Source of the DNA: Giardia intestinalis
Lineage: Eukaryota
NCBI GenBank assembly: GCA_000002435.2
Contig: CM018789.1
Length of the DNA stretch: 64,000 bases
Strand: one strand, 5' to 3'
Each line of letters opens with the position of its first letter. The stretch's first letter is position 1. The notes under the pieces are model-generated. The model saw only the letters and a program-made list of their open reading frames with translations. It had not been told where the DNA came from and did not search any database. The position numbers and the translations under genes are program-made. Below are positions 1 to 19,387 of this stretch, one piece after another.

Positions 1-592
1 AGTGCCTAACTGTCCTTGCCGGTGGCATTGCACAGCGAGTGCCCTGGAGGCGCCATCATGACTACGCTTTTCTGCTCTTTTGCTTACAGAGGCCATTACT
101 GTCTGTCCGCTCATGACACCATAAACACACAAGGTCAATCCCCCTGGCACTTTACTCAGAGGTGCGCCGGCTCTTTCGGAGAAGCGCTTCTCTGTGTAGC
201 TGTCTAGTGAACAGACCAGACACGGTGGTGCTATCAGCCAAGCCACTGCTGGGCAGAGCACACGGCCTGTATCTGCTCGTCTCGTGCTCTAGCCAGCCAC
301 CCCGCGTGAGCATCTGGAGGCGTGCCTGGACATATGCGTGGTATTCTGCGGTGTGCACGGTCTCGTGTCCGCACAGTAGGCCAGCCAGGGAGCGTGTGCA
401 GGCACGTCATGTGGCACCACGTCCTTTGTGGAATGCTGGAGGACCACACAGGCGAGGGTCTACCATCAAGATACGGACACGTTGCTTCCTGACATGGAAG
501 GTCAATGAGGCTATCCAGATGGCCCAGCCACGGTAGAAGGCTAGCAGATGTGATCGTATTGGCCACCAGCACTGTCACTAATACCAACATGC

Positions 593-3400
593 ATGATTAA
601 TAGATCTAGCAGGGCCGCAATGTTGCTACTAGTTCTTTGCTTTTTGATGAGCGCTCTCGCTGCACAATGCAAGGGGCACCAGCACTCCAACTGCGCAACC
701 GGCTGGTGCAGGGCGGTCCGTGGCGTCGAGGTCTGTATGAGGTGCAAAGCGGGCCACGTGCTGATCGACGGAGTGTGCGCTGATAACTCTGTTGTCTACG
801 GCGCGGGGTCCGCCTGCCAGATTCTAAACTGCAAGCAGTGTAACGCGGACAACACGCAGTGCGAGCAGTGCGAGGACGGATACACGCCGAGCGCCGGGAA
901 TACCCAGTGCAACGAGGACGCCGCGTCCGCCTGCCAGATTCTAAACTGCAAGCAGTGTAACGCGGACAACACGCAGTGCGAGCAGTGCGAGGACGGATAC
1001 ACGCCGAGCGCCGGGAATACCCAGTGCAACGAGGACGCCGCGTCCGCCTGCCAGATTCTAAACTGCAAGCAGTGTAACGCGGACAACACGCAGTGCGAGC
1101 AGTGCGAGGACGGATACACGCCGAGCGCCGGGAATACCCAGTGCAACGAGGACGCCGCGTCCGCCTGCCAGATTCTAAACTGCAAGCAGTGTAACGCGGA
1201 CAACACGCAGTGCGAGCAGTGCGAGGACGGATACACGCCGAGCGCCGGGAATACCCAGTGCAACGAGGACGCCGCGTCCGCCTGCCAGATTCTAAACTGC
1301 AAGCAGTGTAACGCGGACAACACGCAGTGCGAGCAGTGCGAGGACGGATACACGCCGAGCGCCGGGAATACCCAGTGCAACGAGGACGCCGCGTCCGCCT
1401 GCCAGATTCTAAACTGCAAGCAGTGTAACGCGGACAACACGCAGTGCGAGCAGTGCGAGGACGGATACACGCCGAGCGCCGGGAATACCCAGTGCAACGA
1501 GGACGCCGCGTCCGCCTGCCAGATTCTAAACTGCAAGCAGTGTAACGCGGACAACACGCAGTGCGAGCAGTGCGAGGACGGATACACGCCGAGCGCCGGG
1601 AATACCCAGTGCAACGAGGACGCCGCGTCCGCCTGCCAGATTCTAAACTGCAAGCAGTGTAACGCGGACAACACGCAGTGCGAGCAGTGCGAGGACGGAT
1701 ACACGCCGAGCGCCGGGAATACCCAGTGCAACGAGGACGCCGCGTCCGCCTGCCAGATTCTAAACTGCAAGCAGTGTAACGCGGACAACACGCAGTGCGA
1801 GCAGTGCGAGGACGGATACACGCCGAGCGCCGGGAATACCCAGTGCAACGAGGACGCCGCGTCCGCCTGCCAGATTCTAAACTGCAAGCAGTGTAACGCG
1901 GACAACACGCAGTGCGAGCAGTGCGAGGACGGATACACGCCGAGCGCCGGGAATACCCAGTGCAACGAGGACGCCGCGTCCGCCTGCCAGATTCTAAACT
2001 GCAAGCAGTGTAACGCGGACAACACGCAGTGCGAGCAGTGCGAGGACGGATACACGCCGAGCGCCGGGAATACCCAGTGCAACGAGGACGCCGCGTCCGC
2101 CTGCCAGATTCTAAACTGCAAGCAGTGTAACGCGGACAACACGCAGTGCGAGCAGTGCGAGGACGGATACACGCCGAGCGCCGGGAATACCCAGTGCAAC
2201 GAGGACGCCGCGTCCGCCTGCCAGATTCTAAACTGCAAGCAGTGTAACGCGGACAACACGCAGTGCGAGCAGTGCGAGGACGGATACACGCCGAGCGCCG
2301 GGAATACCCAGTGCAACGAGGACGCCGCGTCCGCCTGCCAGATTCTAAACTGCAAGCAGTGTAACGCGGACAACACGCAGTGCGAGCAGTGCGAGGACGG
2401 ATACACGCCGAGCGCCGGGAATACCCAGTGCAACGAGAACCCAGAAGCGCGGTGCAATACTCCCAACTGTAAGACCTGTGACAACCCCAAAACAGGCAAT
2501 GAAATCTGCACTAAATGTAATGATGGCGACTACCTCACCCCTACAAACCAGTGCGCACATGACTGCACAGCCATCAGCGGATACTACGGAGATACTGACA
2601 AGAAGTGTAAGCCATGCAGCCCTGAGTGCGCTGAGTGCGTTGGGCCAGCCAACAATCAGTGTAGTGCTTGTCCTGCAGGCAAGGCATTAACATATGGAGG
2701 TGGTGATCCTGCCCAAGGGGGCACCTGCGGGGATGCGTGTACGGCGGACAAGAACGGATGTAAGGTCTGTGGGGCAAGGATCGGCGGGACAGACTACTGC
2801 TCCCAGTGCTCAGTGGGTACTCAGGCTCCTCTGAACGGGGTCTGTACGGCCAACGCGCGTGCTCAGTTCTGCACACAAGTTACCAGTGGATCCTGCACGT
2901 CTTGTAGTGGGGGCTACTTCCTCAAGAATGGTGGCTGTTACCAGGCAGATAGACAGCCAGGCAAACAGATATGTACACTAGCTGATAGCAATGGTGGATG
3001 TCAGGCGTGTGCCAATGGTCTTCCTCCTAGTTCTTCTGACGTATGCCCCTCGTGTCATTTCACCTGCAAGACATGCTCGACCGCAGACATTGCAAATACT
3101 TGTACAACGTGTGCAACTGGGTACTACATGGTCGGATCAGGGCCAAACACATGTATTTCGTGTGAAAGTGACAGTGGAAGTGTCAAGGGAGTTGCTGGCT
3201 GCATGAGCTGCGCTCCTCCATCTAGCAATACTGGCTCCGTTCTCTGCTACCTCATGAACGGTGACAGTGCCGGCGGGAGCACGAATAAGAGCGGCCTTAG
3301 CACAGGTGCCATCGCTGGCATCTCTGTGGCTGTCATCGTCGTCGTCGGGGGACTCGTCGGCTTCCTCTGCTGGTGGTTCATCTGCAGGGGCAAAGCGTAG
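593..3400 (+). CDS. vsp: Variant-specific surface protein (VSP), long form with 14 x 39-aa tandem repeats
   Basis: 935-aa ORF. It has a hydrophobic signal-like N-terminus; MLLLVLCFLMSALAAQC from the second in-frame ATG at 620 may be the real start. It is Cys-rich with many CXXC motifs and a GGCY motif (FLKNGGCYQ). A C-terminal TM helix (GAIAGISVAVIVVVGGLVGFLCWWFI) is followed by CRGKA-stop. An AGTAAAC poly(A) signal lies just downstream. Confidence 0.95.
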   Translation: MINRSSRAAMLLLVLCFLMSALAAQCKGHQHSNCATGWCRAVRGVEVCMRCKAGHVLIDGVCADNSVVYGAGSACQILNCKQCNADNTQCEQCEDGYTPSAGNTQCNEDAASACQILNCKQCNADNTQCEQCEDGYTPSAGNTQCNEDAASACQILNCKQCNADNTQCEQCEDGYTPSAGNTQCNEDAASACQILNCKQCNADNTQCEQCEDGYTPSAGNTQCNEDAASACQILNCKQCNADNTQCEQCEDGYTPSAGNTQCNEDAASACQILNCKQCNADNTQCEQCEDGYTPSAGNTQCNEDAASACQILNCKQCNADNTQCEQCEDGYTPSAGNTQCNEDAASACQILNCKQCNADNTQCEQCEDGYTPSAGNTQCNEDAASACQILNCKQCNADNTQCEQCEDGYTPSAGNTQCNEDAASACQILNCKQCNADNTQCEQCEDGYTPSAGNTQCNEDAASACQILNCKQCNADNTQCEQCEDGYTPSAGNTQCNEDAASACQILNCKQCNADNTQCEQCEDGYTPSAGNTQCNEDAASACQILNCKQCNADNTQCEQCEDGYTPSAGNTQCNEDAASACQILNCKQCNADNTQCEQCEDGYTPSAGNTQCNENPEARCNTPNCKTCDNPKTGNEICTKCNDGDYLTPTNQCAHDCTAISGYYGDTDKKCKPCSPECAECVGPANNQCSACPAGKALTYGGGDPAQGGTCGDACTADKNGCKVCGARIGGTDYCSQCSVGTQAPLNGVCTANARAQFCTQVTSGSCTSCSGGYFLKNGGCYQADRQPGKQICTLADSNGGCQACANGLPPSSSDVCPSCHFTCKTCSTADIANTCTTCATGYYMVGSGPNTCISCESDSGSVKGVAGCMSCAPPSSNTGSVLCYLMNGDSAGGSTNKSGLSTGAIAGISVAVIVVVGGLVGFLCWWFICRGKA
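808..2437 (+). repeat. Perfect 117-bp tandem array, about 13.9 units, in frame within the VSP CDS
   Basis: The period was measured directly: cgcctgccag at 811 recurs at 928. The unit encodes SACQILNCKQCNADNTQCEQCEDGYTPSAGNTQCNEDAA (6 Cys, two CXXC). Units look nucleotide-identical by eye across lines 781-2460. 1630 bp / 117 = 13.9. Confidence 0.95.
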
Positions 3401-3412
3401 ATGTACTTAGAT

Positions 3413-3419
3413 AGTAAAC
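3413..3419 (+). promoter_or_regulatory. Giardia-type polyadenylation signal AGTAAAC for the left VSP
   Basis: AGTAAAC matches the AGTRAAY consensus and starts 13 nt after the TAG stop codon at 3398-3400. Confidence 0.7.
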
Positions 3420-3912
3420 GCGTCACTGTATAAAGCATATTATACTGTGATGGGGCCCTGCCTGTGGGAGCGTCCAGAAATCCCACGAGTAAGTCTCGCC
3501 CACGTCTTGGCCAATCTGAGAGCGAGAACTGGTTGTAGACAGCAAGCAGGGACTCCTCTTTATTAGTGTATCTAAAACTTGGCACCTTCTCCGGTCGCTC
3601 TGTGGGTGTGTGCTCAGTCTGGGTGTGCACGTCGGCCGTTTCGGGGTTCAGGCCTTCTCGCAGACTCTCTGGTCCACCAGTGGCGCCTCTCCTTGGTCTT
3701 CCTTCACGGTGAGTGAAGCCCGGGCCGCTGTCTTTTTTAGATGCCCCCGTCTGTCAGGGGCTGCCATCGGGCTCTCCGCTGGCTGGGCCCCTCGGTGTCC
3801 GTCCGGCTGTGGTTCTGGGTCAGCGCTTCCACAGTCGCGGTCACTTGGGTCTCAGTGGGCCGGCTGGTGGGTGGGGCGGGGGTATGGGCGGTGAGGACTG
3901 GTGGGACCGGGT

Positions 3913-5580
3913 GGGGGCTGAGATTGGTGTCCGTATGTGCTCCTGGGTTCGGTGGGCCATTGCGGCGGTGGGTGATCCCCTCTCTGTTTGCCAAGGTGGT
4001 TGTGTCTGATCCCCAGCCTTCGTTGCACTCCCGAGACACAGGCACCGACGATCGTGTCGTGTCCCCTGACTGAGCGCCTCCCTTGGCCCCTGCATGCCTC
4101 GGGCAGTACTGCTGCTCTGGTTGACTGGTACATGAGGGATGAGGCAGGCCATCGCAGCCTCTCCTGCTACTCGCTGATGCTCTGTGCGGGTCTGCTGGGC
4201 CCCTGGCATGCCCTGTCCAGTGCCTCGACGTAGTTCACCTCGGCCAGCAGGGGTGTGGATGAGCCGGTGGATGGGATGGGTTCTCTCAGGCCTCTAGTGT
4301 GATGGCCCAGAAGACTGGCACGGTGGGGCACTGGTGGCTGCACTGTCCCCGTGGTCAGCTGTGCTGCTCCTGGTGGGTCCTTGTCATGGAGCGCTGTGTG
4401 TTGTTCATAGGCAGAGGTGAGCCTCCTTGGTTTCAAGATGCTCTACCATGCAGAGAGGAGCACGCTGAGGGTCACCCATACCTCACATCTGCTGTGCCCG
4501 TTCGGGAGTTCCCGGTGTGGTCCACCAGGACCTTGACACCTCTCGTGGCTCTGATGACCCCTCGAGGAGAGCCGGGGTGTCCTATGCCAGGGGAGGCGTG
4601 CACCCTCCTGCATGAGCTGGGACCCACTGCACTGCCCTCAAGGAGGTCTGCTATGAGAGGCAGTGGGATGATTGACGGCCCCAGAGTGCGGTGGAGGGTG
4701 CTCGTGGTCATCTCTTGTGATCGGGCATCACTCTGATGGCCAGCTCTGTGCCTGTGTGGTGCTCAGAGGCCACCTGTCTGCCTCATCGCCTGCTGGACAG
4801 CCGGGTCTCTTGTGGTGTCCGAAGGCCTCCTCACTCCTCTGGCTGCTGCCCCCTCGGGTCATCAATGAAGACAGTCGAGGCCAGCGGAGTCTTCGGTGAG
4901 TCTGGTGCCTGCCTGGGTGTCATGGGGGCTGGCAGCTGTCAGGGCTCTGCCACTGCTCACCTGCCTGGAGTGTGCCTCCCTTGGACCTACTGTGCTGCGT
5001 GAGTCCTCTGGCTTCCTATCAGGCCCTGACTGTGAGGGTGACCCCACCTGGTCCTCTGATGCCCCTGTGGATGAGCATAGCAATGTGTCTGATTGAGGAT
5101 CTCTGGTGCCCGTGTCTGTTGCTGCCTCTCGGGTGCTCGGGTAGTTGCCTGGCACTCTCGTATGGGGGCACAGTCAGCGTGTCCCGAGCAGACTCCAGTC
5201 CTCTCTGGGTCCACACAGTCTGTTCGTGTGTGGATGATCCTCCTGCACTCAGGTCCATCTGTGCACACTATCACTCAGCCTCGAGAGCAGGCCAGTGCAG
5301 TCGCCAGGGTTGCTGTCAGAGGGAGTCGTCTGCCACTACATCGCTCGAGCAGACTCTACAGATCAGGCTGGCTGCTGTGCACCCTCATGGCAGGGCTGCC
5401 TGACTCCCCTTGGTCATCCTCTCTGTCCCGGTGTGCACGGCTCCTGAGGGTTGTCTGGGTGGAGGCACTCACAGACCACGAGCACACAGAGGGGTGAGTC
5501 ATAGATGGACAGCCATCAGTCACCACAGCTGCGATCACCCCAGTCTATCGAGGGACCAGGGGCACATACAGACACCCACC
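3913..5580. other. Unique GC-rich core of the inter-VSP spacer; no credible CDS
   Basis: This is the only part of 1-7971 without a mirror copy. Many overlapping 60-145 aa ORFs occur on both strands in several frames, as expected from stop-poor GC-rich DNA. I recognise no motif in any of them. Confidence 0.6.
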
Positions 5581-6073
5581 ACCCGGTCCCACCAGTCCTC
5601 ACCGCCCATACCCCCGCCCCACCCACCAGCCGGCCCACTGAGACCCAAGTGACCGCGACTGTGGAAGCGCTGACCCAGAACCACAGCCGGACGGACACCG
5701 AGGGGCCCAGCCAGCGGAGAGCCCGATGGCAGCCCCTGACAGACGGGGGCATCTAAAAAAGACAGCGGCCCGGGCTTCACTCACCGTGAAGGAAGACCAA
5801 GGAGAGGCGCCACTGGTGGACCAGAGAGTCTGCGAGAAGGCCTGAACCCCGAAACGGCCGACGTGCACACCCAGACTGAGCACACACCCACAGAGCGACC
5901 GGAGAAGGTGCCAAGTTTTAGATACACTAATAAAGAGGAGTCCCTGCTTGCTGTCTACAACCAGTTCTCGCTCTCAGATTGGCCAAGACGTGGGCGAGAC
6001 TTACTCGTGGGATTTCTGGACGCTCCCACAGGCAGGGCCCCATCACAGTATAATATGCTTTATACAGTGACGC

Positions 6074-6080
6074 GTTTACT
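6074..6080 (-). promoter_or_regulatory. Polyadenylation signal AGTAAAC for the right VSP (mirror of 3413-3419)
   Basis: The plus strand reads gtttact, whose reverse complement is AGTAAAC. Spacing from the stop codon is the same as on the left. Confidence 0.7.
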
Positions 6081-6092
6081 ATCTAAGTACAT

Positions 6093-7379
6093 CTACGCTT
6101 TGCCCCTGCAGATGAACCACCAGCAGAGGAAGCCGACGAGTCCCCCGACGACGACGATGACAGCCACAGAGATGCCAGCGATGGCACCTGTGCTAAGGCC
6201 GCTCTTATTCGTGCTCCCGCCGGCACTGTCACCGTTCATGAGGTAGCAGAGAACGGAGCCAGTATTGCTAGATGGAGGAGCGCAGCTCATGCAGCCAGCA
6301 ACTCCCTTGACACTTCCACTGTCACTTTCACACGAAATACATGTGTTTGGCCCTGATCCGACCATGTAGTACCCAGTTGCACACGTTGTACAAGTATTTG
6401 CAATGTCTGCGGTCGAGCATGTCTTGCAGGTGAAATGACACGAGGGGCATACGTCAGAAGAACTAGGAGGAAGACCATTGGCACACGCCTGACATCCACC
6501 ATTGCTATCAGCTAGTGTACATATCTGTTTGCCTGGCTGTCTATCTGCCTGGTAACAGCCACCATTCTTGAGGAAGTAGCCCCCACTACAAGACGTGCAG
6601 GATCCACTGGTAACTTGTGTGCAGAACTGAGCACGCGCGTTGGCCGTACAGACCCCGTTCAGAGGAGCCTGAGTACCCACTGAGCACTGGGAGCAGTAGT
6701 CTGTCCCGCCGATCCTTGCCCCACAGACCTTACATCCGTTCTTGTCCGCCGTACACGCATCCCCGCAGGTGCCCCCTTGGGCAGGATCACCACCTCCATA
6801 TGTTAATGCCTTGCCTGCAGGACAAGCACTACACTGATTGTTGGCTGGCCCAACGCACTCAGCGCACTCAGGGCTGCATGGCTTACACTTCTTGTCAGTA
6901 TCTCCGTAGTATCCGCTGATGGCTGTGCAGTCATGTGCGCACTGGTTTGTAGGGGTGAGGTAGTCGCCATCATTACATTTAGTGCAGATTTCATTGCCTG
7001 TTTTGGGGTTGTCACAGGTCTTACAGTTGGGAGTATTGCACCGCGCTTCTGGGTTCTCGTTGCACTGGGTATTCCCGGCGCTCGGCGTGTATCCGTCCTC
7101 GCACTGCTCGCACTGCGTGTTGTCCGCGTTACACTGCTTGCAGTTTAGAATCTGGCAGGCGGACCCCGCGCCGTAGACAACAGAGTTATCAGCGCACACT
7201 CCGTCGATCAGCACGTGGCCCGCTTTGCACCTCATACAGACCTCGACGCCACGGACCGCCCTGCACCAGCCGGTTGCGCAGTTGGAGTGCTGGTGCCCCT
7301 TGCATTGTGCAGCGAGAGCGCTCATCAAAAAGCAAAGAACTAGTAGCAACATTGCGGCCCTGCTAGATCTATTAATCAT
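6093..7379 (-). CDS. vsp: Variant-specific surface protein (VSP), short form with a single repeat unit
   Basis: 428-aa ORF. It is amino-acid-identical to the left VSP at the N-terminus (first ~110 aa) and C-terminus (last ~318 aa, including GGCY, the TM helix and CRGKA). It lacks 507 aa, which equals 13 repeat units. An alternative start at 7352 mirrors 620. Confidence 0.95.
   Translation of the reverse strand: MINRSSRAAMLLLVLCFLMSALAAQCKGHQHSNCATGWCRAVRGVEVCMRCKAGHVLIDGVCADNSVVYGAGSACQILNCKQCNADNTQCEQCEDGYTPSAGNTQCNENPEARCNTPNCKTCDNPKTGNEICTKCNDGDYLTPTNQCAHDCTAISGYYGDTDKKCKPCSPECAECVGPANNQCSACPAGKALTYGGGDPAQGGTCGDACTADKNGCKVCGARIGGTDYCSQCSVGTQAPLNGVCTANARAQFCTQVTSGSCTSCSGGYFLKNGGCYQADRQPGKQICTLADSNGGCQACANGLPPSSSDVCPSCHFTCKTCSTADIANTCTTCATGYYMVGSGPNTCISCESDSGSVKGVAGCMSCAPPSSNTGSVLCYLMNGDSAGGSTNKSGLSTGAIAGISVAVIVVVGGLVGFLCWWFICRGKA
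7056..7164 (-). repeat. Single copy of the 117-bp repeat unit in the short VSP
   Basis: The mirror coordinates of 808-2437 collapse to 109 bp (1630-1521). The protein reads ...GSACQILNCKQCNADNTQCEQCEDGYTPSAGNTQCNENPEA... only once. Confidence 0.9.
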
Positions 7380-8049
7380 GCATGTTGGTATTAGTGACAG
7401 TGCTGGTGGCCAATACGATCACATCTGCTAGCCTTCTACCGTGGCTGGGCCATCTGGATAGCCTCATTGACCTTCCATGTCAGGAAGCAACGTGTCCGTA
7501 TCTTGATGGTAGACCCTCGCCTGTGTGGTCCTCCAGCATTCCACAAAGGACGTGGTGCCACATGACGTGCCTGCACACGCTCCCTGGCTGGCCTACTGTG
7601 CGGACACGAGACCGTGCACACCGCAGAATACCACGCATATGTCCAGGCACGCCTCCAGATGCTCACGCGGGGTGGCTGGCTAGAGCACGAGACGAGCAGA
7701 TACAGGCCGTGTGCTCTGCCCAGCAGTGGCTTGGCTGATAGCACCACCGTGTCTGGTCTGTTCACTAGACAGCTACACAGAGAAGCGCTTCTCCGAAAGA
7801 GCCGGCGCACCTCTGAGTAAAGTGCCAGGGGGATTGACCTTGTGTGTTTATGGTGTCATGAGCGGACAGACAGTAATGGCCTCTGTAAGCAAAAGAGCAG
7901 AAAAGCGTAGTCATGATGGCGCCTCCAGGGCACTCGCTGTGCAATGCCACCGGCAAGGACAGTTAGGCACTGCCAATAGGCCAGTCTGCGTCAGTAAACA
8001 CGCAGTGTTCGCAGGCCGAACCATGTACCTTTGCAAGCGGGCAGTGTAA

Positions 8050-11000
8050 CCATTTCAACTTTTAATGCTGTTAAGCGATCTGTATAGTCCGCTTCATCTG
8101 GACGCCTCACGTGCCTTCGCCGCAACCACTGCTTCCATCTCGCAAGCCAACCATGCTATTGATGGAATGAGGCAGCAATACATCCGCCGCCCTTAATTCG
8201 CCCAGGCTGCCAATTCCACCCTGCAAGCTGCCCGCCACCTACCGTAGATCGATGTGGATGCATACTGCGGTGTGGTTGGGCCTGGAATAAGCAGATCTCA
8301 ACTGGGAGTCAGTCTCCTACTCTCCGTCGTCTGGCTCTGTCTCTGGTGTGAGCAGGACCATGCAACCACGAAAGACATCAGCTCCCTGCCAGTAGACAAT
8401 ATGCGCTGCAGAATAGGAGAACGTAGTGGGCCCCTAAGCTGCCCCGCTCGAGGAGCCGCTGCTTCTTTAACAGGGTTGCCCGACGACAGCAGGCACCAGT
8501 ATGGCTACCAGGCCCTTCTGGCTCTGACTTGCAGAGCATCCCCAGCACCGCTCCGGTAAGAGCTGTCTTTCCTATTGGCTTCTGCCGTCCGGGCGTCAGT
8601 TATGGCGAGAATTAACCCTTGCCCATTGGTACTGGTCGAACACTCACTACGTGTTGCTCGTCTAGGAAAGATTGATCTTGCCGCTCCACGGGCTATTCGC
8701 CATGCTGGATGACGAACATATGTGCCACTCAGCCCCTAGTCTTTATTGGATGCAAGGCCAGCTATGCAGGGTTACAGGGCCGCCTCGCCATCCTTAAGTT
8801 GAGCTCTTAGAAGTGTCCTACGTTTTACTAGACGCAACCTAGGTCCGTCCAACTCTATGCTTTATACTAATTCTAGATTGGGTTAAGCGTGCCTGGTAGT
8901 GAAGGTATCTACGGTACTTCCACTCACCGTGAGCAGTTCATAGAAGCCCCTGTGGCTCATCGCCTTCAATACTTGTGCGTTCACTCATCGATACCTCCGC
9001 GTTATTCAGCATAACTATAGTATGTCACCTGTATGCGTCAAGCTACAGCTCCTAAGTGTCTTACAGCAAATACCTTGCGTCTGAGCACCTGGTTAATTCA
9101 GCATCCACGCGTATAAAACATGATAGAAGTCTGTGGAGTATGGTGGCTTCCATTTTCTCTTTCCCCTTTTCTGACTCTGGTTGACTTTATCTTTGCTGGG
9201 TCAAATATGCACTATCTACGCGCACCTTAATGTTAACGGCACTCGTATGTCCTGCCAGGTCATATAAATCTTTATCAGCCGTTGCATGATAATTGTCTGG
9301 CATAATATGCAATCTGGTATTGAATGAAGAATAAAGCGCCCACTTTTGTAATGAGGACTTGTTGTGCTTATGCTGGGAAATAATAGATGGTCAAGTATAA
9401 CCGTACAAGGCTGTAGGACACTCTGCTGGACGATTTTATGAGTATAGGAAGCTGCCTGCTTTAACCTACAGCTCATTTCATTCACGTCATAAGCATTTTG
9501 CCACACAAGATCACTTTAAAAGCATTCTGTGATTACCAGACATCTTTTGATACCAGTCCCGGGTCAACAAAGCAAGCTGCTTATTGTAATTTGGAAAATT
9601 GGGTAACGGCTCCATGGATTCTTGGGTATCATGCCCACTAATCAGCAACTACCAAATATCCTACTTCGCATCTACTTTTTGCAATCTGTTTTTTGTAAGA
9701 CGGCGACTGAAGCGCTAATGGCTCAGTTTCCTAGACCATCCATATCTCTACATAAAGGTTGCCATCGGAAGTCTCCATAAATAGAACATGCAAACTCGAC
9801 AGACAAGCTTCTAGTATCAGCCTTCTCACAATGTATCTATGACAACGGGTCTGTCTTTAGTCAATCGATACTTATCCAGAGAACAGTAGCGCGGCAGTAG
9901 TATAGATGATTATTACGTAGCTTATGCAGGGGCTTGTTGTCAGCAACAAGAGATAAAACAACCTTAGCCTTACAAGATTAAAAGTTCCACATTAGCTAAA
10001 AACGATAGGCTCAGTGACCATTTTTCATGCCACTCACCAAACTTAAGCCGTTTACAGATTTGACGTTTAGTTGCTCTTACAATCTTTACTCTGCTGGTTG
10101 TCTGTTTGTTTGGATCTCTAGTTAAGGTTGGGCCAGTCTGCAATCTTACTCGTGCTCAATTGCGTGACACGCCATAACCATAATATCATTTATGATCTAG
10201 CCATCTATTGCAGGCGCTACTTGCTACATCAGAAACAATGACCGTGGATCCATTACCTTCCCTTTGGTGGTCAAAGTATCATAAGGGACAGACTCTTCTC
10301 ATGTGCTGGTTGGGCCGCTTAATCTTGTCAGTACAAACTTCTCTCACGATTCAAGCTAGTTGTGATAGTGATGGCATAATTTCCCTAGCAATCAGTTACT
10401 CAGTTCAATCCTTGCCTCAATATTATAACGAGTTGGACGCCTTGAGTCACAACGAGTCGGTGAAATTAGTATCTCAAAGCTTGCACGGATGTAAAGCATC
10501 GCGTTGGACATCACTGGATAAAGGCATGTACCAGTTGAGAATTGGTGCAACTTCTGGCTAACTCTTGAAGGCCCACGCTCCCTAACATGAACGTGGACAA
10601 GGCCAATCCCAGGCTCTGCGCCATATGGGTTTGTCACGAAGTCCTTGCCAGTAGGCACACAAAGCGACTGTTCTTGTCGCTTTTCTCGTGCTGTCGGTCT
10701 TGATTTGTCCTCTATGCGGCGTGGTGCAGTAGACAACCTCACCCCCTATGACCTTCCGTTGCGCAGCTCGTAACTGCTGTACACAATGCGTCTGCAAAGA
10801 GCCGACATGACAACGGCCCTATTTGGATGCTGCCCATGCAGAACCAGGCTTACGACTGCGTCTTGCAGCTATTAGCCGTGTATTCCATTTACTGCTGATT
10901 GCCTGGTCTATTATCACATATCTATGTATTGGCAAAGCAAGGCCCGTCCTTTTCTCGAAGGCAATAAAGCAATCTATTTGATCTACACCTTGCGCCCTTA

Positions 11001-11899
11001 AGCATATATCGGAAGACTACAATCAGCTCGTTCTGACTAGACTACATCATGGAAGGCATGAAAGGTCAGTTGGGTTTGTAACATACAGTGACGTAAAGTC
11101 ATTCGCGTCTCTTCAAAGCACCAAAGCAGCCCGCAAAAGTGTTCATTCAGATGGCTTTCTATCTCCATGTGACGATGCTCATGTGGATTTTCAGTACATT
11201 TACAGTGGTATTTCTGTGCGGCTCACATGTCTTATGAAAGTCTATGTTACCGATAGCTGGATGCAGATCTTCCTATTCTGTAAGATATTCATCGTCGTTC
11301 AACGTGTTCATAGCATGACATATCTGGCGTTTGCCTAGTTTGCCAATGCAAGTGCTTTCACTCTATGCTTACAAAAAGCACGAAGCCCAAGGGAGGATGG
11401 CCACAACCCCGAGGAGCGTGTATACAGCTGGCGACTTTAAGGGCCTACGTGAAAAGTACTAATATCCGTCCATGATTGCTCTTACAGTACTTTAATAATA
11501 GGCTAATAATAGATTCCCTGATGGCTATGCAGGATGGTATGTACCACCTGCAATGTTGAAAGATGTCCCAGCATGTACAGAAACACGTTGTGTACCCTAG
11601 AATCTACCAGTGATACTGGTGTGTAGAAGCAATTCATATATAAGAAGCGGTGTGCACAGACTCACTAAGAATGAGGAGGATAATTGGCAAGCAAAATAAG
11701 CTCTTACATTATTTCAAGAAGCATGCATTCACGACTTGGAGCTAAGAATGACGTATAAGTTATTTGAAAGCATAACACACTTAGAGGCAGAGCTGCAAAT
11801 CGCCTTTATCATATACAGGCAGTCACGTGGAACCATGCATGAAGATTCATGTTGTGGCACACCTTCACAGCTTCGTGGTTGGCGTCACGCCCAAGACCT
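8050..11899. other. ORF-free stretch (gene desert) between the VSP palindrome and the core genes
   Basis: The longest track ORFs here (8254-8559, 9216-9506, 10208-10561, 10392-10742) are 96-117 aa. All four start at non-ATG codons (GTG/TTG, checked in the sequence), they overlap each other, and they carry no motif I recognise. Stop codons are frequent in all six frames. Confidence 0.7.
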
Positions 11900-12424
11900 C
11901 TAATCATCGGTGAGATCAATAGTGCTATTGCTAAGATCAATGACTGGAACCCGCTTCAGAGCCCGTTGGTGCGCAATGTATCTTACCTCTTGGTAGTAGT
12001 TGTGGCAGGCACGGATTGTAAGTCCAGCGGCCTGGTTAATTCGGTGCGCTTGTGCGTGCCAGACGGGCCCGTGATGCACTCGCTCGAACACCTTCAGTCT
12101 GAAAAGGTAGGCGTGGATCATCTCATGCACCAGCACGTCGAGCAGGTCGTGTTGTGAACGATATTGGAGTAGAGGTGCAGATAGGATAATTACAATAGGA
12201 CTATGCTCTTCTGTTCGCGTCCCTCTGTATTTGCATAGACCTGCAGAACGTGTTAGCCTATTGCTCCAATGAACCACAACATCTCTCAGGCAATTGTCGA
12301 AAAAAGCCTCGTTGAAATGCCTAAAGAGCGCGTGCACATCACCAAAAGGCCAGTGTTGTGTTTCTAGTTCCTGAGAGGTAGGTGGTGGGGCAGCAAAAAA
12401 GTCCAGGAGGGGGTTGCTATCCAT
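11900..12424 (-). CDS. SprT-like zinc metalloprotease, SPRTN/Spartan-type (DNA-protein crosslink repair) ortholog
   Basis: 174 aa from the ATG at 12424 (context CATAAAAATG). The longer track ORF would run into the neighbouring gene. Motifs: FRHFNEAFFDN...VHWSNRLTRSAGLC, HExxH in LLDVLVHEMIHAYLF, then HGPVWHAQAHRIN. These are colinear with the human SPRTN block LLHEMIHAYLF...HGPEF...HRIN as I recall it. Confidence 0.85.
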   Translation of the reverse strand: MDSNPLLDFFAAPPPTSQELETQHWPFGDVHALFRHFNEAFFDNCLRDVVVHWSNRLTRSAGLCKYRGTRTEEHSPIVIILSAPLLQYRSQHDLLDVLVHEMIHAYLFRLKVFERVHHGPVWHAQAHRINQAAGLTIRACHNYYQEVRYIAHQRALKRVPVIDLSNSTIDLTDD

Positions 12425-12428
12425 TTTT
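12425..12428. promoter_or_regulatory. 4-bp spacer (TTTT) between two divergent start codons; minimal bidirectional initiator
   Basis: The plus strand reads CAT-TTTT-ATG at 12422-12431. CAT is the SPRTN-like start codon on the minus strand, and ATG is the Nei-like start codon. Confidence 0.6.
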
Positions 12429-13847
12429 ATGCCAGAGCATCCTGAGGTTCGAGCCTTCGCAGAACGCATAACGTTTGAGGCAGAGCACACTCTCTTTACT
12501 AACGTCTCTACTTCGAGGGCGTGTGTGTATAAGGCCCTCCCACCTTTGTTCCTTGATGATTCCATAAAAGTAGCATTTACCATAAGGTGCGAATCTCGAG
12601 GCAAGCAGCTCCGAGTTGACCTGGCTCGGGCAGCTGATCCACCTAGGAATGAGGCAAAGAGTATTTTTGTGCGTCTGAAAAGAAATACATCTGACACCTC
12701 AGAGACACCCTATGATTTGTGCAAAACAACCGCTTTAAGCCGCCCCTGGGAACACTCAGATCACGCTGTGGCGCTTACCATACCAACCAGTATCGTGATT
12801 GGCCTGGGATTAGCAGGCTGTATCAACACCTTCTTAACCCCAGAGGAAGCTTTGAAGTCTAACGCACATCTCTTGTTTGAGGCATCTGATGCTGTGTTAG
12901 CAGTATGCTCGCCACGGCCAGAGACCATGTACTGGCGAGTAGGAGACTTCGACCATGCACGGTCCCCTGATCCTGTGGCACAGTACCTAGACTATGTGTC
13001 CAAGATACTGTCCAAACTGTCACATATTCCTATAGGTCTTGACGGGTCTTTCATTGTGCCACCCAAGTCGATATTTTCACAACCCATATGCCGGCTTCTT
13101 TTGTCTCAGGAATTGTTCAACGGAGTAGGGAATTACCTACGAGCAGAGGCCATGCACCGACTTCTTATTCACCCTTTCACCCCAAGCGTCTATGTGTTTG
13201 AAGAGCTTATCCATTGGGTTCATGACACCGTGCGAGAAACCCCTCGATTCCACAACTTGAGTAACAAGTGGAGAAGTCTTGCCGAAAAGAATGTCTCTAT
13301 TATCGAGACCAAGTGCCCACTCATCCCGATGATCAGAAGGCTATGTGAGGAGGCCTATGCTGTTCTGGATGATCACAGACTCTTTTCGGAGTGGCTTTTA
13401 TGCTATAAGAAAGCAACTAATTGCATTCTTGATTCCGGGGGCAGAGAAGTTTGGTTCTTCGAAAAGCTAGTCGCAAACAAATCCAGTCATGCAAGTGAGC
13501 ACGGCGATAAGAAGAATTCTGCTGAGAAGCCAGATGCATGTACCCTGTCAGAGCTCATACTGTCCTCTGAACCTAGTCTTAAAAAGGTTGCAGTACAGCA
13601 ACTGGCTACGTCAAACGCAGAAAATGTCATTCTTAATAGCACGGAGAATGATGCTGATGTCAGCCAGCTAGACATCTTGGAATACTCTCGCAAAGACCTC
13701 CTTCGACGAGGCACGGTACTCGACAATCTTCCAATTGATTCTAGAAACGAGTCAGCTAGTCGATGGCAGGACAAGATTGTTCGGAAGAGTACTGTCCAAC
13801 AATTACATGACGCTCGAACGTTTCAAGCAAGCCTCCAGTCGAAGTAA
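12429..13847 (+). CDS. Fpg/Nei-family DNA glycosylase, NEIL1-like
   Basis: 472 aa from the ATG at 12429; the track start at 12414 is TTG. The N-terminus MPEHPEV matches the catalytic Pro2-Glu3 signature of Fpg/Nei. An H2TH motif LLLSQELFNGVGNYLRAEAMHRLLIHPF resembles E. coli Nei [20 protein letters not shown] and NEIL1 FFNGIGNYLRAEIL. AGTAAAG overlaps the TAA stop. Confidence 0.88.
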   Translation: MPEHPEVRAFAERITFEAEHTLFTNVSTSRACVYKALPPLFLDDSIKVAFTIRCESRGKQLRVDLARAADPPRNEAKSIFVRLKRNTSDTSETPYDLCKTTALSRPWEHSDHAVALTIPTSIVIGLGLAGCINTFLTPEEALKSNAHLLFEASDAVLAVCSPRPETMYWRVGDFDHARSPDPVAQYLDYVSKILSKLSHIPIGLDGSFIVPPKSIFSQPICRLLLSQELFNGVGNYLRAEAMHRLLIHPFTPSVYVFEELIHWVHDTVRETPRFHNLSNKWRSLAEKNVSIIETKCPLIPMIRRLCEEAYAVLDDHRLFSEWLLCYKKATNCILDSGGREVWFFEKLVANKSSHASEHGDKKNSAEKPDACTLSELILSSEPSLKKVAVQQLATSNAENVILNSTENDADVSQLDILEYSRKDLLRRGTVLDNLPIDSRNESASRWQDKIVRKSTVQQLHDARTFQASLQSK

Positions 13848-13865
13848 AGCAGAGAGTCCGCGGGC

Positions 13866-14399
13866 CTATATCTGCCTGACCATTATCTTATCATCCAAGG
13901 AGTACAGAAGGTGGTCGCTATACAGCTGTACAATGGGAGGCGGCTCTGTTTCAGAGATGGGCATTGTGCTTCTACAATACTGGTCTACAATCTCTAACTG
14001 ATCAGATACCTTCATGATCGTGTAGTGGTTTGCAAGAAAGAGGGCAGAACGGGCGTTGAGTAATCGTGTAAACGGGGGTTGGTGACACAGCTGGCTGTTC
14101 AACTGTTCAACCCTCTGCACCCTCAGCGGCTGCAGGCTGCCTCTCATGGCCAAGAGGTTGAGCCCGTCGGTTCCGACGGTGTAGAGCACTTGCTTGCAGG
14201 TGAGCGCGGAGTCGAAAATGGGATACGAGGGGGCCAGCTGGGCGTGTGTGTGAAGAAGGGCGTTCCTTATCAGATCCCAGACCTTCACAGACCCGTCGAT
14301 GCTGGTGGAAACCAGCGCGCTGTCGGCGACGTGCAGCGACGTCACCGCGTGGCTGTGAGAAAGGGTCGTGGCGGGGTGGGGCGGAAAAGCGTGCACCAT
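13866..14399 (-). CDS. Hypothetical protein with WD40-like repeats (short)
   Basis: 177-aa ATG-initiated ORF with a WD-type blade HSHAVTSLHVADSALVSTSIDGSVKVWDL. It is too short for a full propeller, and the ATG context is GC-rich (GACTCCCGCATGG), which is atypical for this locus. Confidence 0.55.
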   Translation of the reverse strand: MVHAFPPHPATTLSHSHAVTSLHVADSALVSTSIDGSVKVWDLIRNALLHTHAQLAPSYPIFDSALTCKQVLYTVGTDGLNLLAMRGSLQPLRVQRVEQLNSQLCHQPPFTRLLNARSALFLANHYTIMKVSDQLEIVDQYCRSTMPISETEPPPIVQLYSDHLLYSLDDKIMVRQI

Positions 14400-14523
14400 G
14401 CGGGAGTCGGACCCGCCCCAACAGCTTGGAAGGCTGTCATGCTAGCCGATACACCAATGGTGCCCGGCGCGCCGCATAAACAGCGGATAAATTAGTATGT
14501 GCTTTGAATGGTCTGGTTCAGAT

Positions 14524-15072
14524 TTACTCGGGATTGGCGGTGCGGATGAACTCGTCGAGGAGGTTCTCCTCTGGGAGCGCACGCCACCGGGTCCGCTCGG
14601 TCCCCCGCAGTGCTTCTTGCTGCCGCTGGAGCCGCTCGATGGTCTCTCGCTCACGAGCTTTGTGTACTCTTGCTTCCTCTGCGTAATTTGTAACGGCATC
14701 GATGAATTGTTTAACACCAGCAAAGGCGGTGCGGATCAGCCGCATCTCTGCAGAATCAGATGGAGGCGCAGGAGTGGTTATGTGACCCTTCTCTAGGAGC
14801 TCTCGCCGCTCTATGGAAATAGCATCCTGCAGGCGGCGCTCATACTTCTCACGCTCAACAGCCTTTTCTCGCCCTTCGCGATTGAGCATAACAGGACCGT
14901 GATCCGTTGTATTCAGGTTCTTGTTGACGATACGGCCAACTGCACTCGTAAGTTGCTCCGCGTCGTTATAGCCTAGATGCTTGCGCTTTGGCTCCCCTTC
15001 ATGTGCTGATGGTTCTGATGCAGAGTCACTGATGCTATCTGGGAGGTAGGAGATGTCTGTGTCCGATGACAT
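14524..15072 (-). CDS. Hypothetical protein, tentatively RRP15-like (rRNA processing)
   Basis: 182 aa from the ATG at 15072; the track start at 15102 is GTG. The upstream context is A/T-rich (TCTAAAAATTGTAATAGTATG). EMRLIRTAFAGVKQFIDAV resembles the RRP15 E-LRkvATrGVVqLFNAV block. AGTAAAT overlaps the TAA stop. The functional call is weak. Confidence 0.7.
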   Translation of the reverse strand: MSSDTDISYLPDSISDSASEPSAHEGEPKRKHLGYNDAEQLTSAVGRIVNKNLNTTDHGPVMLNREGREKAVEREKYERRLQDAISIERRELLEKGHITTPAPPSDSAEMRLIRTAFAGVKQFIDAVTNYAEEARVHKARERETIERLQRQQEALRGTERTRWRALPEENLLDEFIRTANPE

Positions 15073-15098
15073 ACTATTACAATTTTTAGAAGTGCGTG

Positions 15099-15734
15099 TC
15101 ACCCTACGAGCACAGCAGATCCTTTGATTACATGGTCCTCAACGGCATCGAAGTGGACTGCGAGTTGATCATCTACCGCCACAACAGTCTCTGTATCGAA
15201 AGATGTGATAGTGGTAGCTTGGAGAAAGCGTACAACCACAACCTTGCTACGGAGAAGGATAAGCTGTCGACTAAGGGTTTCGCGGAGCTCCTTTTGGAAG
15301 GAGGCTTCTGGGTCCAATTCTGTTGCATGGTTGGACAGTATGGCTTTAATGGGTTGAAAAATGGTTGTATTGAGCAACTGGTGCGACAACTCAAGAAAGG
15401 CTCTGGCGGCATCCTGCTCATTTTCAGTGAGGTACTTTTGTAGCTCCGTCTGCATATATAGAAATGGCTTATCGCTGAGCTTTGAAAGCCGTAGACGCAC
15501 ATAGTCTTCGAAAATGAAGCGTAGCCGCTCCATGTGTAGGTGAACCATGTCTCTATGAACCTTGTCATACATTGCTATTCTGTCTTGAGATTTCGACAGG
15601 TATTCCTTAACTGTATCAAGCACCTCTTGCTCGCGCGGAAGAACGATGGGACTATAGCGCTCGTTGTTCCACAGCTGCAGAAACCTGTCGTATGCCCGTT
15701 TATTCTGTTCACTGGCCTCAAGTAGCCCGGCCAT
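15099..15734 (-). CDS. SLD5: GINS complex subunit SLD5 (GINS4)
   Basis: 211 aa. LQLWNNERYSPIVLP matches the Sld5 aW-NE-aPelL motif. HMERLRFIFEDYVRLRLSKL matches the ERirFvl-sYlR-Rl-Kie motif. The C-terminal beta domain ends ...AVEDHVIKGSAVLVG. Confidence 0.8.
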   Translation of the reverse strand: MAGLLEASEQNKRAYDRFLQLWNNERYSPIVLPREQEVLDTVKEYLSKSQDRIAMYDKVHRDMVHLHMERLRFIFEDYVRLRLSKLSDKPFLYMQTELQKYLTENEQDAARAFLELSHQLLNTTIFQPIKAILSNHATELDPEASFQKELRETLSRQLILLRSKVVVVRFLQATTITSFDTETVVAVDDQLAVHFDAVEDHVIKGSAVLVG

Positions 15735-15746
15735 GAGGCAGCTAAT

Positions 15747-16964
15747 TTATTTACTGCAGCTGTCATTGACGTCTGGAGACTGGGGTTGCAGATCTTTATA
15801 TGTGTCCTTCGGCAGTACACACACTCCGAGATAAGCTTCCCGCCATAGATTAAGAAGTTGTCGACATATGGGCCGCAATGACCTATCTAGATCATCAAGT
15901 TCAGGGCGGGATACTGCACTGTTCATTAAAAGTAGCTCATGTCCAGCACCCACAGATGTCAGTAGCCCCATTTTTCTGTCGGAGCCGTGGAGCATAAGGC
16001 TTTGTCGAGCACTATGAAACGCGGAGGATAGTTCCCTTGTGCGTAGATGTGCAGCCAATGAATCAAGTCCTTGCATAATCTTCTTTCCAACAAGCCTACT
16101 CTGGCCAGGCCCCATACAGACCAATACACTTGCACCGTGAAATACCATGAGACTTGCAGACGCAAATGGGGCCAGCGTCTTATTTAAAAGTGGGACGAAA
16201 GCCAAAGCTGCATCTGTCTCACGGCCAGGCTGAACAGGAAATGCTAAGACAGTCTCTGGTATGCGTGTATATGGTGAGATGTATGAGTGTATCCTGTTGT
16301 CGAACAAATTAATGTTCAGTCGCGAGACCGGTTGTTGCCAGAAATCAGTGACCTGGGAGATAGATCCGTGAATATTGTTGCCTGAAAGGGTGTCCATTGC
16401 CTTACTAATATCCACGTCATTACCAGATAGAATGTAGACAGCCTTGGCAGGGTCAAGCAGCTTGTCCGTGAACTCCTTGTATGCTCCATTTTTCATTCGT
16501 CCATAAAGACCAATCTCTGCCAGTATCGGATTCGCCAGGGGGCTATCTCTGAAGACATGATGCAAAACAAGTTCCTTTGCATGCTCGTAAGGCGTAGCAA
16601 GGACCATGATGGCTTCGTGTTGAATATCATCGTACTCGTTGAGCAGAAGGGGAAGAGGACGCTGTGCACGCGGCAGGAGGTCACGAAGCTGCTCAAGACA
16701 ATCTGTGAGAGAGGGGCGATGGAGCTGAGTGTCTCGCGCATCTGCGGTAAATGCAACGTAGTTTTTAGCAGTGAACCCGTTGAGCTCAATCCCAGCATCC
16801 TCTGCGGCAGTTAGCCTCTGAGTGCGGGACAGACCTTGACCAAATGCCATGTGCTCAGCCAAGTGGGTGAAACCAGCAGTCATCGTAGACTCTACCAGCG
16901 GACCACCACTGAAGACCACGGTAGCGGAGGGAAGCGCTCCTGGAACTATGTCACGGATAAGCAT
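15747..16964 (-). CDS. M16-family zinc peptidase (inverted HxxEH motif); candidate mitosomal processing peptidase
   Basis: 405 aa. GFTHLAEHMAFGQG contains the H-x-x-E-H of pitrilysin/MPP-beta. The protein is shorter than typical MPP subunits. AGTAAAT overlaps its TAA stop. Confidence 0.8.
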   Translation of the reverse strand: MLIRDIVPGALPSATVVFSGGPLVESTMTAGFTHLAEHMAFGQGLSRTQRLTAAEDAGIELNGFTAKNYVAFTADARDTQLHRPSLTDCLEQLRDLLPRAQRPLPLLLNEYDDIQHEAIMVLATPYEHAKELVLHHVFRDSPLANPILAEIGLYGRMKNGAYKEFTDKLLDPAKAVYILSGNDVDISKAMDTLSGNNIHGSISQVTDFWQQPVSRLNINLFDNRIHSYISPYTRIPETVLAFPVQPGRETDAALAFVPLLNKTLAPFASASLMVFHGASVLVCMGPGQSRLVGKKIMQGLDSLAAHLRTRELSSAFHSARQSLMLHGSDRKMGLLTSVGAGHELLLMNSAVSRPELDDLDRSLRPICRQLLNLWREAYLGVCVLPKDTYKDLQPQSPDVNDSCSK

Positions 16965-17141
16965 GGCTAGAAATCTAAATTACTATACTTGGAGAAGGAG
17001 CTCTATCCCCGATTGACCAAGAAATGAAATCGCTACAAAATAGCAAGGAGCCCGTTTGCGAGTGGATGAGGCTAACAGTCCTTATTGAAGAACTTTTTGC
17101 CGCACAGAGAGATCTTTGGACTTTTTAATTTTGAAATCTCA

Positions 17142-18734: not shown

Positions 18735-18982
18735 CGCCCTGGTACGGGCCTTTGCGGGGCCCATGTTTAAGTAAAGGACTGCGTGGATGGGATCCTTCCC
18801 CTTGCTTCTGGTGTACCGTGCGGCAGTCTTTGACAGAGACCACTGCGAGAAGAACTGGTGGTGAGGGTTCACGAGACAGAGTAGGGTAATAAAGAACACA
18901 CCAGAGTAACACAAGGGTGCAGTTTTTTCTCGCCAATTGACTTTGCAAAGGTAATTTACTCGTATCAATTTATAGGTATCGG

Positions 18983-19255
18983 ATGTCTCTCGAACTTCAG
19001 ATATCTAAGGTTAAACGGATTACCAAGCTTGCGGCGCCCTCCCATGTAATCAATAAGGACACTATCCGAGCCATTGCATTTGTTGCCCAGCGTGTCACGG
19101 CCCATGCCCTACAGTCGGCTATACAGGAATCGAAGCGGAACAAAAAGAAGATAACCGGATACGAGCATTTAGCTGATGCTGTGATACACGCCCCTGGGTT
19201 GGCCTTCCTTCGTGACACCGTTCCCCATCCCATTCAACTGAATAGGAATGGATAG
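18983..19255 (+). CDS. Histone-fold protein (NC2-alpha/DRAP1 or Pol-epsilon p12/CHRAC-type)
   Basis: 90 aa. ISKVKRITKLAAPSHVINKDTIRAIAFVAQRVTAHALQSAIQESKRNKKKITGYEHLADAV...LAFLRDTVP fits the CBFD_NFYB_HMF histone-fold pattern (arvKkImk-d-dv--is-ea...FL-d-vP). Confidence 0.75.
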   Translation: MSLELQISKVKRITKLAAPSHVINKDTIRAIAFVAQRVTAHALQSAIQESKRNKKKITGYEHLADAVIHAPGLAFLRDTVPHPIQLNRNG

Positions 19256-19387
19256 CTCATTCCGGGATGATCCTTAGTTTCTGTGATTTACATCCCACTT
19301 CTCTTCAGGGCGGTTTGTTATCAAGACCATTGACTATCGCAATCTTCTACAGAATCTGTGAACAGAGAGGTCAGGGAGATTTAAAAA

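Follow-up and report, generated by a model that had tools for sequence, protein, structure and literature searches.

The inverted VSP (variant-specific surface protein) gene pair described here lies at the left end of a 64,000-nucleotide stretch of Giardia intestinalis DNA (contig CM018789.1 of assembly GCA_000002435.2; below, the window), which is part of chromosome 1 of G. intestinalis WB (NC_051856.1) and carries both genes. The locus is the known tail-to-tail pair vsp87.1/87.2, i.e. the genes GL50803_0050392 and GL50803_00112647. It is likely to be an inverted VSP duplication of the catalogued kind, whose arms gene conversion has homogenised and in which transcription of either gene stops at signals of that gene. 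A preliminary description of the same DNA had read the convergent arrangement as a built-in source of VSP double-stranded RNA (dsRNA). The geometry of that proposal stands, but its function found no positive support and meets several counter-indications, so that it is weakened and not refuted. While dsRNA from this pair is geometrically possible, a meaningful contribution of it is improbable; the evidence points the other way, and the locus looks like an ordinary member of the catalogued inverted duplications with unremarkable antisense. The features of the locus, from left to right, are:

1-619 (+), 5' flank of the left VSP gene and outer left arm; truncated by the window edge; no mismatch to the reverse complement of 7353-7971
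593-3400 (+), left mechanical open reading frame (ORF), 935 aa
620-3400 (+), coding sequence of the left VSP gene GL50803_0050392 (XP_037901619.1), 926 aa from the initiator (Inr) ATG
808-2437 (+), tandem array of a 117-nt (39-aa) unit in 13.9 copies, 100% identical (TRF); left gene only
3401-3914 (+), left 3' flank, perfectly mirrored inner arm (base-by-base comparison against 6092-5579)
3915-3946 (+), decayed inner end of the left arm, which aligns to 5578-5556 if 3 mismatches and an indel of 9 nt are allowed
3947-5555, unique non-coding core of 1609 nt (gapped definition), present only once in the window
5556-5578 (-), decayed inner end of the right arm (gapped alignment)
5579-6092 (-), right 3' flank, mirror of 3401-3914 (base-by-base comparison)
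6093-7379 (-), right mechanical ORF, 428 aa
7352-6093 (-), coding sequence of the right VSP gene GL50803_00112647 (XP_001707111.2 / KAE8301640.1), one repeat unit, 419 aa counted from the Inr ATG
7053-7169, single copy of the 117-nt unit in the right gene
7353-7971 (-), 5' flank of the right VSP gene and outer right arm; from ~7772 rightwards also collinear with DNA downstream of the single VSP of P15 (assemblage E)

Both translations possess the features of VSPs: a signal peptide, CXXC motifs (43 in the left protein, 17 in the right), a hydrophobic transmembrane anchor and a CRGKA tail. The best matches of the translated ORFs are WB VSPs with PF03302, and the right-hand protein is 100% identical to the VSP of WB clone C6, KAE8301640.1 / XP_001707111.2. 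The annotated starts are the second ATGs of the frames (620 and 7352), inside the VSP initiator CAATGTT. The (C/T)AATGTT context of VSP start codons is present as CAATGTT at 618-624 (GCAATGTTG at 618-626) and mirrored on the right arm. Just past a VSP stop codon the extended poly(A) motif TAGRTAGTRAAY is expected; here it occurs as TACTTAGATAGTAAACGCGT, 7-26 nt beyond the stop. The CRGKA-tailed ORFs and their stop positions bear out the convergent arrangement that had been described, with 2692 bp from stop to stop (3401-6092), and AGTAAAC indeed lies 13 nt past the stop in both genes.

Adam et al. 2010 and the 2022 preprint of Rodriguez-Walker et al. already record the locus and its geometry, as well as the likeness of its spacer to those of other pairs. 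Table S1 of the preprint (bioRxiv 10.1101/2022.03.07.483299) gives GL50803_00112647 as 1260 nt / 419 aa and GL50803_0050392 as 2781 nt / 926 aa with 14 repeats, both matching the window in sequence. The supplementary list of Adam et al. 2010 (PMC2996952, BMC Genomics 11:424) contains vsp87.1 (GL50803_112647, 'TTIPa') and vsp87.2 ('TTIPb_TR117'), a tail-to-tail inverted pair with a 117-nt repeat. Its Table 5 places the 3' divergence point of gene 87 at 514 nt, exactly the length measured here for the mirrored 3' flank, whereas its spacer length is 2393, unlike the 2692 found here. Modelled with 6 repeat copies, the present gene yields 623 aa with 83 Cys and 27 CXXC, the values tabulated in the same study.

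Adam et al. 2010 counted 14 inverted identical VSP pairs in WB, 10 of them tail-to-tail, and called them 'an interesting, but cryptic observation' (PMC2996952). In all identical pairs the ORFs are 2190-3847 bp apart and the flanks begin to diverge 139-729 nt outside the coding region, and the tail-to-tail spacers of Table 5 span ~2.4-3.2 kb. The chromosome-scale assembly raised the count to 20 duplicated VSP pairs, 13 of them tail-to-tail (bioRxiv 10.1101/2022.03.07.483299). As Adam et al. 2010 cite it (their ref. 17), vsp1267, with two identical tail-to-tail ORFs ~3 kb apart, was described before any genome assembly. The rows of preprint table S4 used here give tail-to-tail spacers of 2,526-2,777 nt that cluster as 'very similar' sequence, among them the vsp87 spacer and the 2,689-nt spacer of GL50803_0014586/d14586 on chromosome 5; this likeness between pairs is the one stated in the S4 table. 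In Adam et al. 2010 together with those S4 rows, the arms of tail-to-tail pairs end 318-559 nt past the stop, and 486-559 nt past it in 7 of 9 cases.

The vsp87 pair resembles this class (vsp1267, Adam 2010, Rodriguez-Walker 2022) in its convergent VSPs, the non-coding spacer of ~2.7 kb (2692 bp, within the 2-4 kb that separate convergent VSP ORFs of the class), the 514 nt of identical 3' flank followed by divergence (within 139-729 nt), the CAATGTT initiator and a spacer resembling that of another pair. It differs in two respects: the ORFs are unequal here, with 14 repeat units versus 1, and the arms do not diverge in a strictly abrupt manner, since decayed homology continues for 32 nt beyond the divergence point.

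This gradual ending of arm identity was among the features described earlier, over ~40 nt; it is real and measures ~32 nt, with the 9-nt indel and 3 mismatches. The mirroring of the 3' flanks is likewise confirmed, but their length is 514 nt by base-by-base comparison and not 512 bp. Including the decayed part, the homology of the 3' flanks ends at 3946/5556, with 97.8% identity over 546 nt (gapped alignment and blastn); in the 21-nt block beside the indel, 19 positions match, far above chance. Outside this zone the arms are without a difference: when 1521 nt of repeat are removed from the left arm, 1-3914 and 7971-5579 show 0 differences over 2393 nt; the innermost 32 nt, by contrast, hold 3 substitutions and an indel of 9 nt. 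The earlier suggestion that conversion tracts set the inner boundary is reasonable in view of this contrast. With identical arms and diverged innermost 32 nt, the duplication may be older than the arms look, conversion failing near the end of homology. The inverted repeat reaches the left edge of the window and continues past it, so that the window does not include its outer boundary.

Large palindromes maintained by arm-to-arm gene conversion are known from the ampliconic regions of the human Y chromosome. As in those, near-perfect inverted arms surround a unique spacer, and arm identity appears to be far above what the divergence at the boundary would lead one to expect. The vsp87 palindrome is a thousand-fold smaller, has one gene per arm and belongs to a protist, and conversion is deduced here from a single sequence.

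The 'identical genes' of the preliminary description are not identical. The left gene has 13.9 copies of the repeat and the right gene one, so that the ORFs differ by 13 x 117 = 1521 nt, being otherwise 100% identical; the identical coding regions that characterise the pairs of Adam et al. 2010 are thus not found in vsp87 (14 vs 1 units). The 14 units are 100% identical among themselves. From otherwise identical genes, the copy-number gap results in proteins of 926 and 419 aa. According to the 2022 catalogue, 'no duplicated VSPs have repeats', and the vsp87 genes are labelled 'non duplicated' (bioRxiv 10.1101/2022.03.07.483299); they are not counted there as a duplicated pair because their repeat numbers are unequal. 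As a one-copy gene has been annotated since the 2007 gene set (428-aa XP_001707111.1), the asymmetry is probably real, the array having changed copy number, or having been assembled differently, in one arm only. Repeat-number variants are described in Adam et al. 2010 (PMC2996952) for vspA6 / vspA6-S1 and, as alleles, for vspC5. These are likewise near-identical VSPs differing mainly in repeat count (~23 in A6 vs ~1 in A6-S1, 14 vs 1 in vsp87), but they are alleles or dispersed paralogues, while the vsp87 variants form the two arms of one palindrome.

Synteny with the window exists in P15 (assemblage E), on contig ACVC01000194.1 (9903-21455 vs window 526-19946); neighbouring genes are 88% identical over 5.5 kb, and another 3.1 kb is 71% identical. 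At the matching position P15 has a single VSP of the same subfamily and N-terminal sequence type, with three tandem repeats; neither an inverted partner nor a homologue of the spacer was found at this locus. The inverted duplication is therefore not common to assemblage E. Some 235-350 nt separate the 3' end of the P15 VSP from the homologue of window 7772-8475, a stretch that in WB is located upstream of the 5' end of the right (-) copy and whose 7772-7971 part is inside the inverted repeat. Because DNA downstream of the P15 VSP is now partly within a WB arm, the arms of the palindrome seem to have spread outward into ancestral flanking DNA. Homology of the WB gene to the P15 and DH VSP loci retrieved stops ~25 nt past the stop codon, so the mirrored flank of 0.5 kb is not part of an ordinary VSP gene. 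The DH locus carrying the closest DH VSP was considered as a syntenic counterpart and rejected, as it is not syntenic.

The spacer core is unique in the window and GC-rich (61.5% G+C), as had been stated; its length is not 1668 bp but 1664 nt by the perfect-mirror definition (3915-5578), or 1609 nt by the gapped one. The base fractions of its + strand (3947-5555) are G 0.317, C 0.298, T 0.238 and A 0.147. That it holds no convincing gene is upheld by codon, Pfam, VSP-profile, protein-homologue, Rfam and tRNA searches. The longest open run in the core comprises 167 codons, while 1000 shuffled versions average 170, and codon-usage log-odds are below zero in all six frames and in every spacer ORF. 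Eight spacer ORFs have no Pfam match, a VSP profile hidden Markov model finds nothing better than E 0.28 in the six spacer frames (negative bit scores), and 14 concatenated spacer ORFs retrieve nothing at E<=0.01 from 5.8 billion proteins. In tblastn of 121 VSPs against the spacer only weak, scattered matches appear; the best (E=3e-4), a Gly/Ser/Cys-rich stretch of 33 aa, is in the arms. No tRNA is found in the spacer and no Rfam family reaches the gathering threshold; at E<=1 only a chance mir-305 match (E=0.38) is listed. A scan for bacterial-type promoters and terminators in the spacer, a method unsuited to Giardia, is empty. A VSP pseudogene, which the preprint reports as frequent between tail-to-tail pairs, was considered for the vsp87 spacer and rejected, no coding or VSP trace being found.

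The left 3' flank and most of the core (3401-5200, + strand) share an excess of T over A (AT skew -0.16 to -0.55) and of G over C. The strand skew flips only in the right arm, so that the 'unique' core looks, in its composition, like an extension of the left arm; this likeness may hint at which copy is ancestral.

Each arm contains two AGTRAA signals according to a motif scan, AGTAAA at 3413-3418 and AGTGAA at 3712-3717 (+), mirrored from 6080 and 5781 (-). Furthermore, a G-quadruplex motif, GGGTGGGGCGGGGGTATGGG, is present at 3869-3888 (+) and mirrored at 5624-5605 (-), inside a G-rich tract (~3862-3918). The two GGGTGGGGCGGGGGTATGGG copies are the only canonical G-quadruplex motifs ((G3+N1-7)x4) in the 64-kb window, both strands counted; they lie 26-45 nt inside the arm/core junctions, on the sense strand downstream of each VSP. 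They may act as a polymerase pause site, or as a fork-stalling site that fixed the breakpoint of the duplication. A metagenome scan for the G-rich junction sequence gave no match. The genome-wide poly(A) signal of Giardia is AGURAA, with a median 3' untranslated region (UTR) of 59 nt and a median gap of 81 nt between proximal and distal alternative cleavage sites (PMC9014877). For transcripts of the two partners to overlap here, both 3' UTRs would have to exceed 1.3 kb or a single one would have to reach 2.7 kb, against the published median of 59 nt.

The explanation we favour combines these observations as follows. A whole VSP transcription unit, consisting of 5' flank, ORF and ~0.5 kb of 3' flank, would have been duplicated in inverted orientation around a non-coding spacer of ~1.6 kb, which would belong to a family of like spacers between tail-to-tail pairs. 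Intrachromosomal gene conversion between the arms is most likely what keeps them identical; it would stop short of the innermost 32 nt, and the copy number of the 117-nt array would shift independently in each arm. Judging from motif positions and the published poly(A) rules, each gene most likely ends at its own AGUAAA 13 nt past the stop, and the AGUGAA 300 nt further would be a back-up terminator. The resulting effects would be two copies of one antigen gene, antigen size variants and a recombination substrate, but not a dedicated dsRNA generator. Low-level read-through antisense may occur; nothing indicates an excess over the antisense of solitary VSPs.

Antisense values were taken from Table S9 of the preprint (bioRxiv 10.1101/2022.03.07.483299), based on strand-specific RNA-seq with a two-location counting scheme. 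They are given in transcripts per million (TPM) and are compared only antisense-to-antisense between genes, the preprint being silent on whether sense and antisense share a denominator; the sample of genes is small and not systematically chosen:

GL50803_00112647 (vsp87 pair), tail-to-tail, antisense TPM 92-165
GL50803_00112208 (vsp1267), tail-to-tail, antisense TPM 69-148
GL50803_00115797, tail-to-tail, antisense TPM 22-77
GL50803_00136003, tail-to-tail, antisense TPM 5-68
GL50803_00137707, tail-to-tail, antisense TPM 30-75
GL50803_00137714, tail-to-tail, antisense TPM 61-89
GL50803_00113024, solitary, antisense TPM 115-174
GL50803_00113163, solitary, antisense TPM 80-185
GL50803_00112207, outside tail-to-tail identical pairs, antisense TPM 5-23
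GL50803_00112693, outside tail-to-tail identical pairs, antisense TPM 0-9
GL50803_00112867, outside tail-to-tail identical pairs, antisense TPM 0-8
GL50803_00113357, outside tail-to-tail identical pairs, antisense TPM 3-12

In this sample the distributions of tail-to-tail and solitary VSPs overlap, and vsp87 is no outlier. Antisense TPM >100 is reached by many non-VSP genes of the same table, and sense exceeds antisense in only 12-20% of VSPs, in any arrangement (bioRxiv 10.1101/2022.03.07.483299). The tail-to-tail gene vsp1267 is the expressed antigen of Clone2 in that study, with 17,987 sense TPM and an antisense of 69, compared with 117-148 in Clone1. Because vsp1267 is highly expressed while its antisense falls, the tail-to-tail arrangement does not enforce self-silencing. 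By the same values, a palindrome can escape silencing fully, and antisense does not track the sense level of the partner; the latter point would lose force if VSP control were purely post-transcriptional.

The RNA interference (RNAi) model, in which VSP dsRNA or antisense is invoked, addresses the restriction of Giardia to one VSP gene (of 136 in the current WB catalogue, up to ~200-300 in earlier estimates). If the ~13 tail-to-tail palindromes supplied VSP dsRNA, the RNAi model would gain a concrete genomic origin, and the 'cryptic' inverted pairs of Adam et al. 2010 would be explained. The structure is already known, but no paper proposing or testing dsRNA from inverted VSP pairs was found in the literature searched; the idea is a reasonable hypothesis, and with its core of 1.6 kb and two junctions uniquely mappable, vsp87 is a well-defined test case.

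Read-through past the poly(A) signals, yielding antisense to the partner or a single hairpin, would let Dicer produce VSP small interfering RNAs (siRNAs) without any RdRP (RNA-dependent RNA polymerase), and would make the pair a built-in silencing trigger. The structural premises hold. Read-through RNA of either gene would be antisense to the partner and complementary to the mRNA of both copies, and the long perfect hairpin that had been predicted is recovered on folding: spacer RNA (3401-6092) forms an uninterrupted 514-bp helix (minimum free energy -1958.6 kcal/mol), and RNA extending into the partner ORF a stem of 1592 bp (2323-3914 vs 7170-5579). Consistent with this idea are also the antisense over the GL50803_00112647 ORF in the published RNA-seq, the overlapping transcripts in 81% of Giardia tail-to-tail pairs with mapped 3' UTRs (PMC3610916), and the reported roles of Giardia Dicer, Argonaute and RdRP in VSP control (Prucca 2008). 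We nevertheless consider the trigger quite unlikely. Two AGURAA signals and a G-quadruplex tract in each arm precede the core, and the 81% overlap concerns genes far closer than 2.7 kb. The vsp87 antisense is not above that of the solitary VSPs 113024 and 113163 or of many non-VSP genes, antisense exceeds sense for most VSPs irrespective of arrangement, a tail-to-tail VSP is the expressed one in Clone2, and the arrangement is absent from the syntenic P15 locus. Moreover, in published work the knock-down of RdRP disrupts VSP exclusivity, which counts against a hairpin model because hairpins would make RdRP dispensable.

Loci for hairpin-derived endogenous siRNAs and for siRNAs from convergent transcription, known in animals and fission yeast, are defined by a spanning transcript and abundant small RNAs of Dicer size. 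The vsp87 pair shares with them an inverted repeat that would give long perfect dsRNA if transcribed as one RNA, in an organism with Dicer and Argonaute. It differs in that each of its arms is an entire protein-coding gene and brings its own poly(A) signals, that it is known here from sequence, and that its sister pair vsp1267 is highly expressed. In PNAS in 2014, Liao and co-workers reportedly traced the endogenous siRNAs of Giardia to telomeric retrotransposons and three other regions; VSP pairs are said not to be described there. In a more elaborate version, tail-to-tail palindromes would be regulated hairpin loci: leaky passage through the AGURAA signals and the G-quadruplex would set the amount of spacer-spanning RNA, dicing would yield primary VSP siRNAs that seed silencing of the family via the conserved 3' region, and recurrent spacer lengths and arm ends would reflect selection. 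This version is even less likely than the simple trigger.

The antisense itself could instead start within the 3' flank, at AT-rich promoters that are cryptic or bidirectional, the palindrome being irrelevant to it. AT-rich initiator-like patches are present there at 3413-3445 (around the poly(A) signal), 3560-3580 and 3735-3745, solitary VSPs reach equal antisense TPM, and the abundance of sterile antisense RNA in Giardia has been ascribed to such promoters (Teodorovic et al. 2007, cited in PMC3610916). As the putative starts are sequence patterns and this source of antisense is compatible with the favoured explanation rather than exclusive of it, we regard it as plausible, though short of an even chance. 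More doubtful is a reading that takes the spacer and the two conserved 3' flanks together as a cassette, functional or mobile, for example the relic of an element or a module by which VSP ORFs are recruited through recombination; the pair would then exist because of the cassette and not through simple duplication on the spot. The 'very similar' spacers and recurrent arm ends of pairs with different ORFs, at least in the S4 rows used, speak for it, as do the position of the window's only two G-quadruplex motifs just inside the arm ends and the 0.5-kb flank outside the ordinary VSP gene. The spacer, however, holds no transposase, reverse transcriptase or other coding relic detectable by Pfam, VSP-profile, protein-homologue or codon tests, and no second copy of it occurs within the window; the preprint explains the likeness of spacers by a common origin and by remnants of transposons, and demonstrates no mechanism (bioRxiv 10.1101/2022.03.07.483299). 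That the inverted pair, or the 14-vs-1 repeat difference, is a mis-assembled single gene is the least credible reading. Repeat copy numbers were possibly condensed by assembly and identical pairs ended contigs prematurely (PMC2996952), the spacer lengths of 2393 and 2692 disagree, and duplicated pairs were once questioned as artefacts, as Rodriguez-Walker et al. note (bioRxiv 10.1101/2022.03.07.483299). The vsp87 pair is, however, present in both the Sanger and the chromosome-scale assemblies, the one-copy gene stood beside its repeat-bearing partner in 2007, and the core meets the arms at two distinct decayed junctions, which a collapse or duplication artefact would not make; the vsp1267 pair, as cited in Adam et al. 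2010, even predates genome assembly.

Several points weigh against the conversion-homogenised duplication that we favour. Conversion is read from a divergence gradient over 32 nt, and an error-prone junction at a very recent duplication may look the same. Termination at the first signal is likewise deduced from motifs. The recurrence of spacers and arm ends in pairs with different ORFs could reflect a selected function of the spacer and not common descent. The vsp87 antisense is not zero (about 120 TPM). Finally, antisense is uniformly moderate in tail-to-tail pairs (26-135), whereas some other VSPs, solitary or otherwise arranged, have almost none (1-8); a modest contribution of the partner gene to the vsp87 antisense may exist for this reason.

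Another route of repression by small RNA has already been proposed for VSP-87.1, since a published alignment of 33 VSP genes that share a conserved putative miR2 binding site in their 3' UTR region includes GL50803_112647 (PMC5192507, Fig. 7). This region corresponds to 3401-3426 and 6067-6092 of the window.

To the right of the pair, two genes serve as synteny anchors:

11900-12424 (-), SprT-like metalloprotease gene (PF10263), 100% identical to a WB protein
14391-14463 (-), tRNA-Gly(TCC) gene, a few kb right of the pair

Logan short-read contigs extending from the SprT-like gene (<=4.4 kb) all end in or before 8800-10000, ~1 kb short of the pair. In the same interval, right of the palindrome, G+C falls from ~56% to ~40%.

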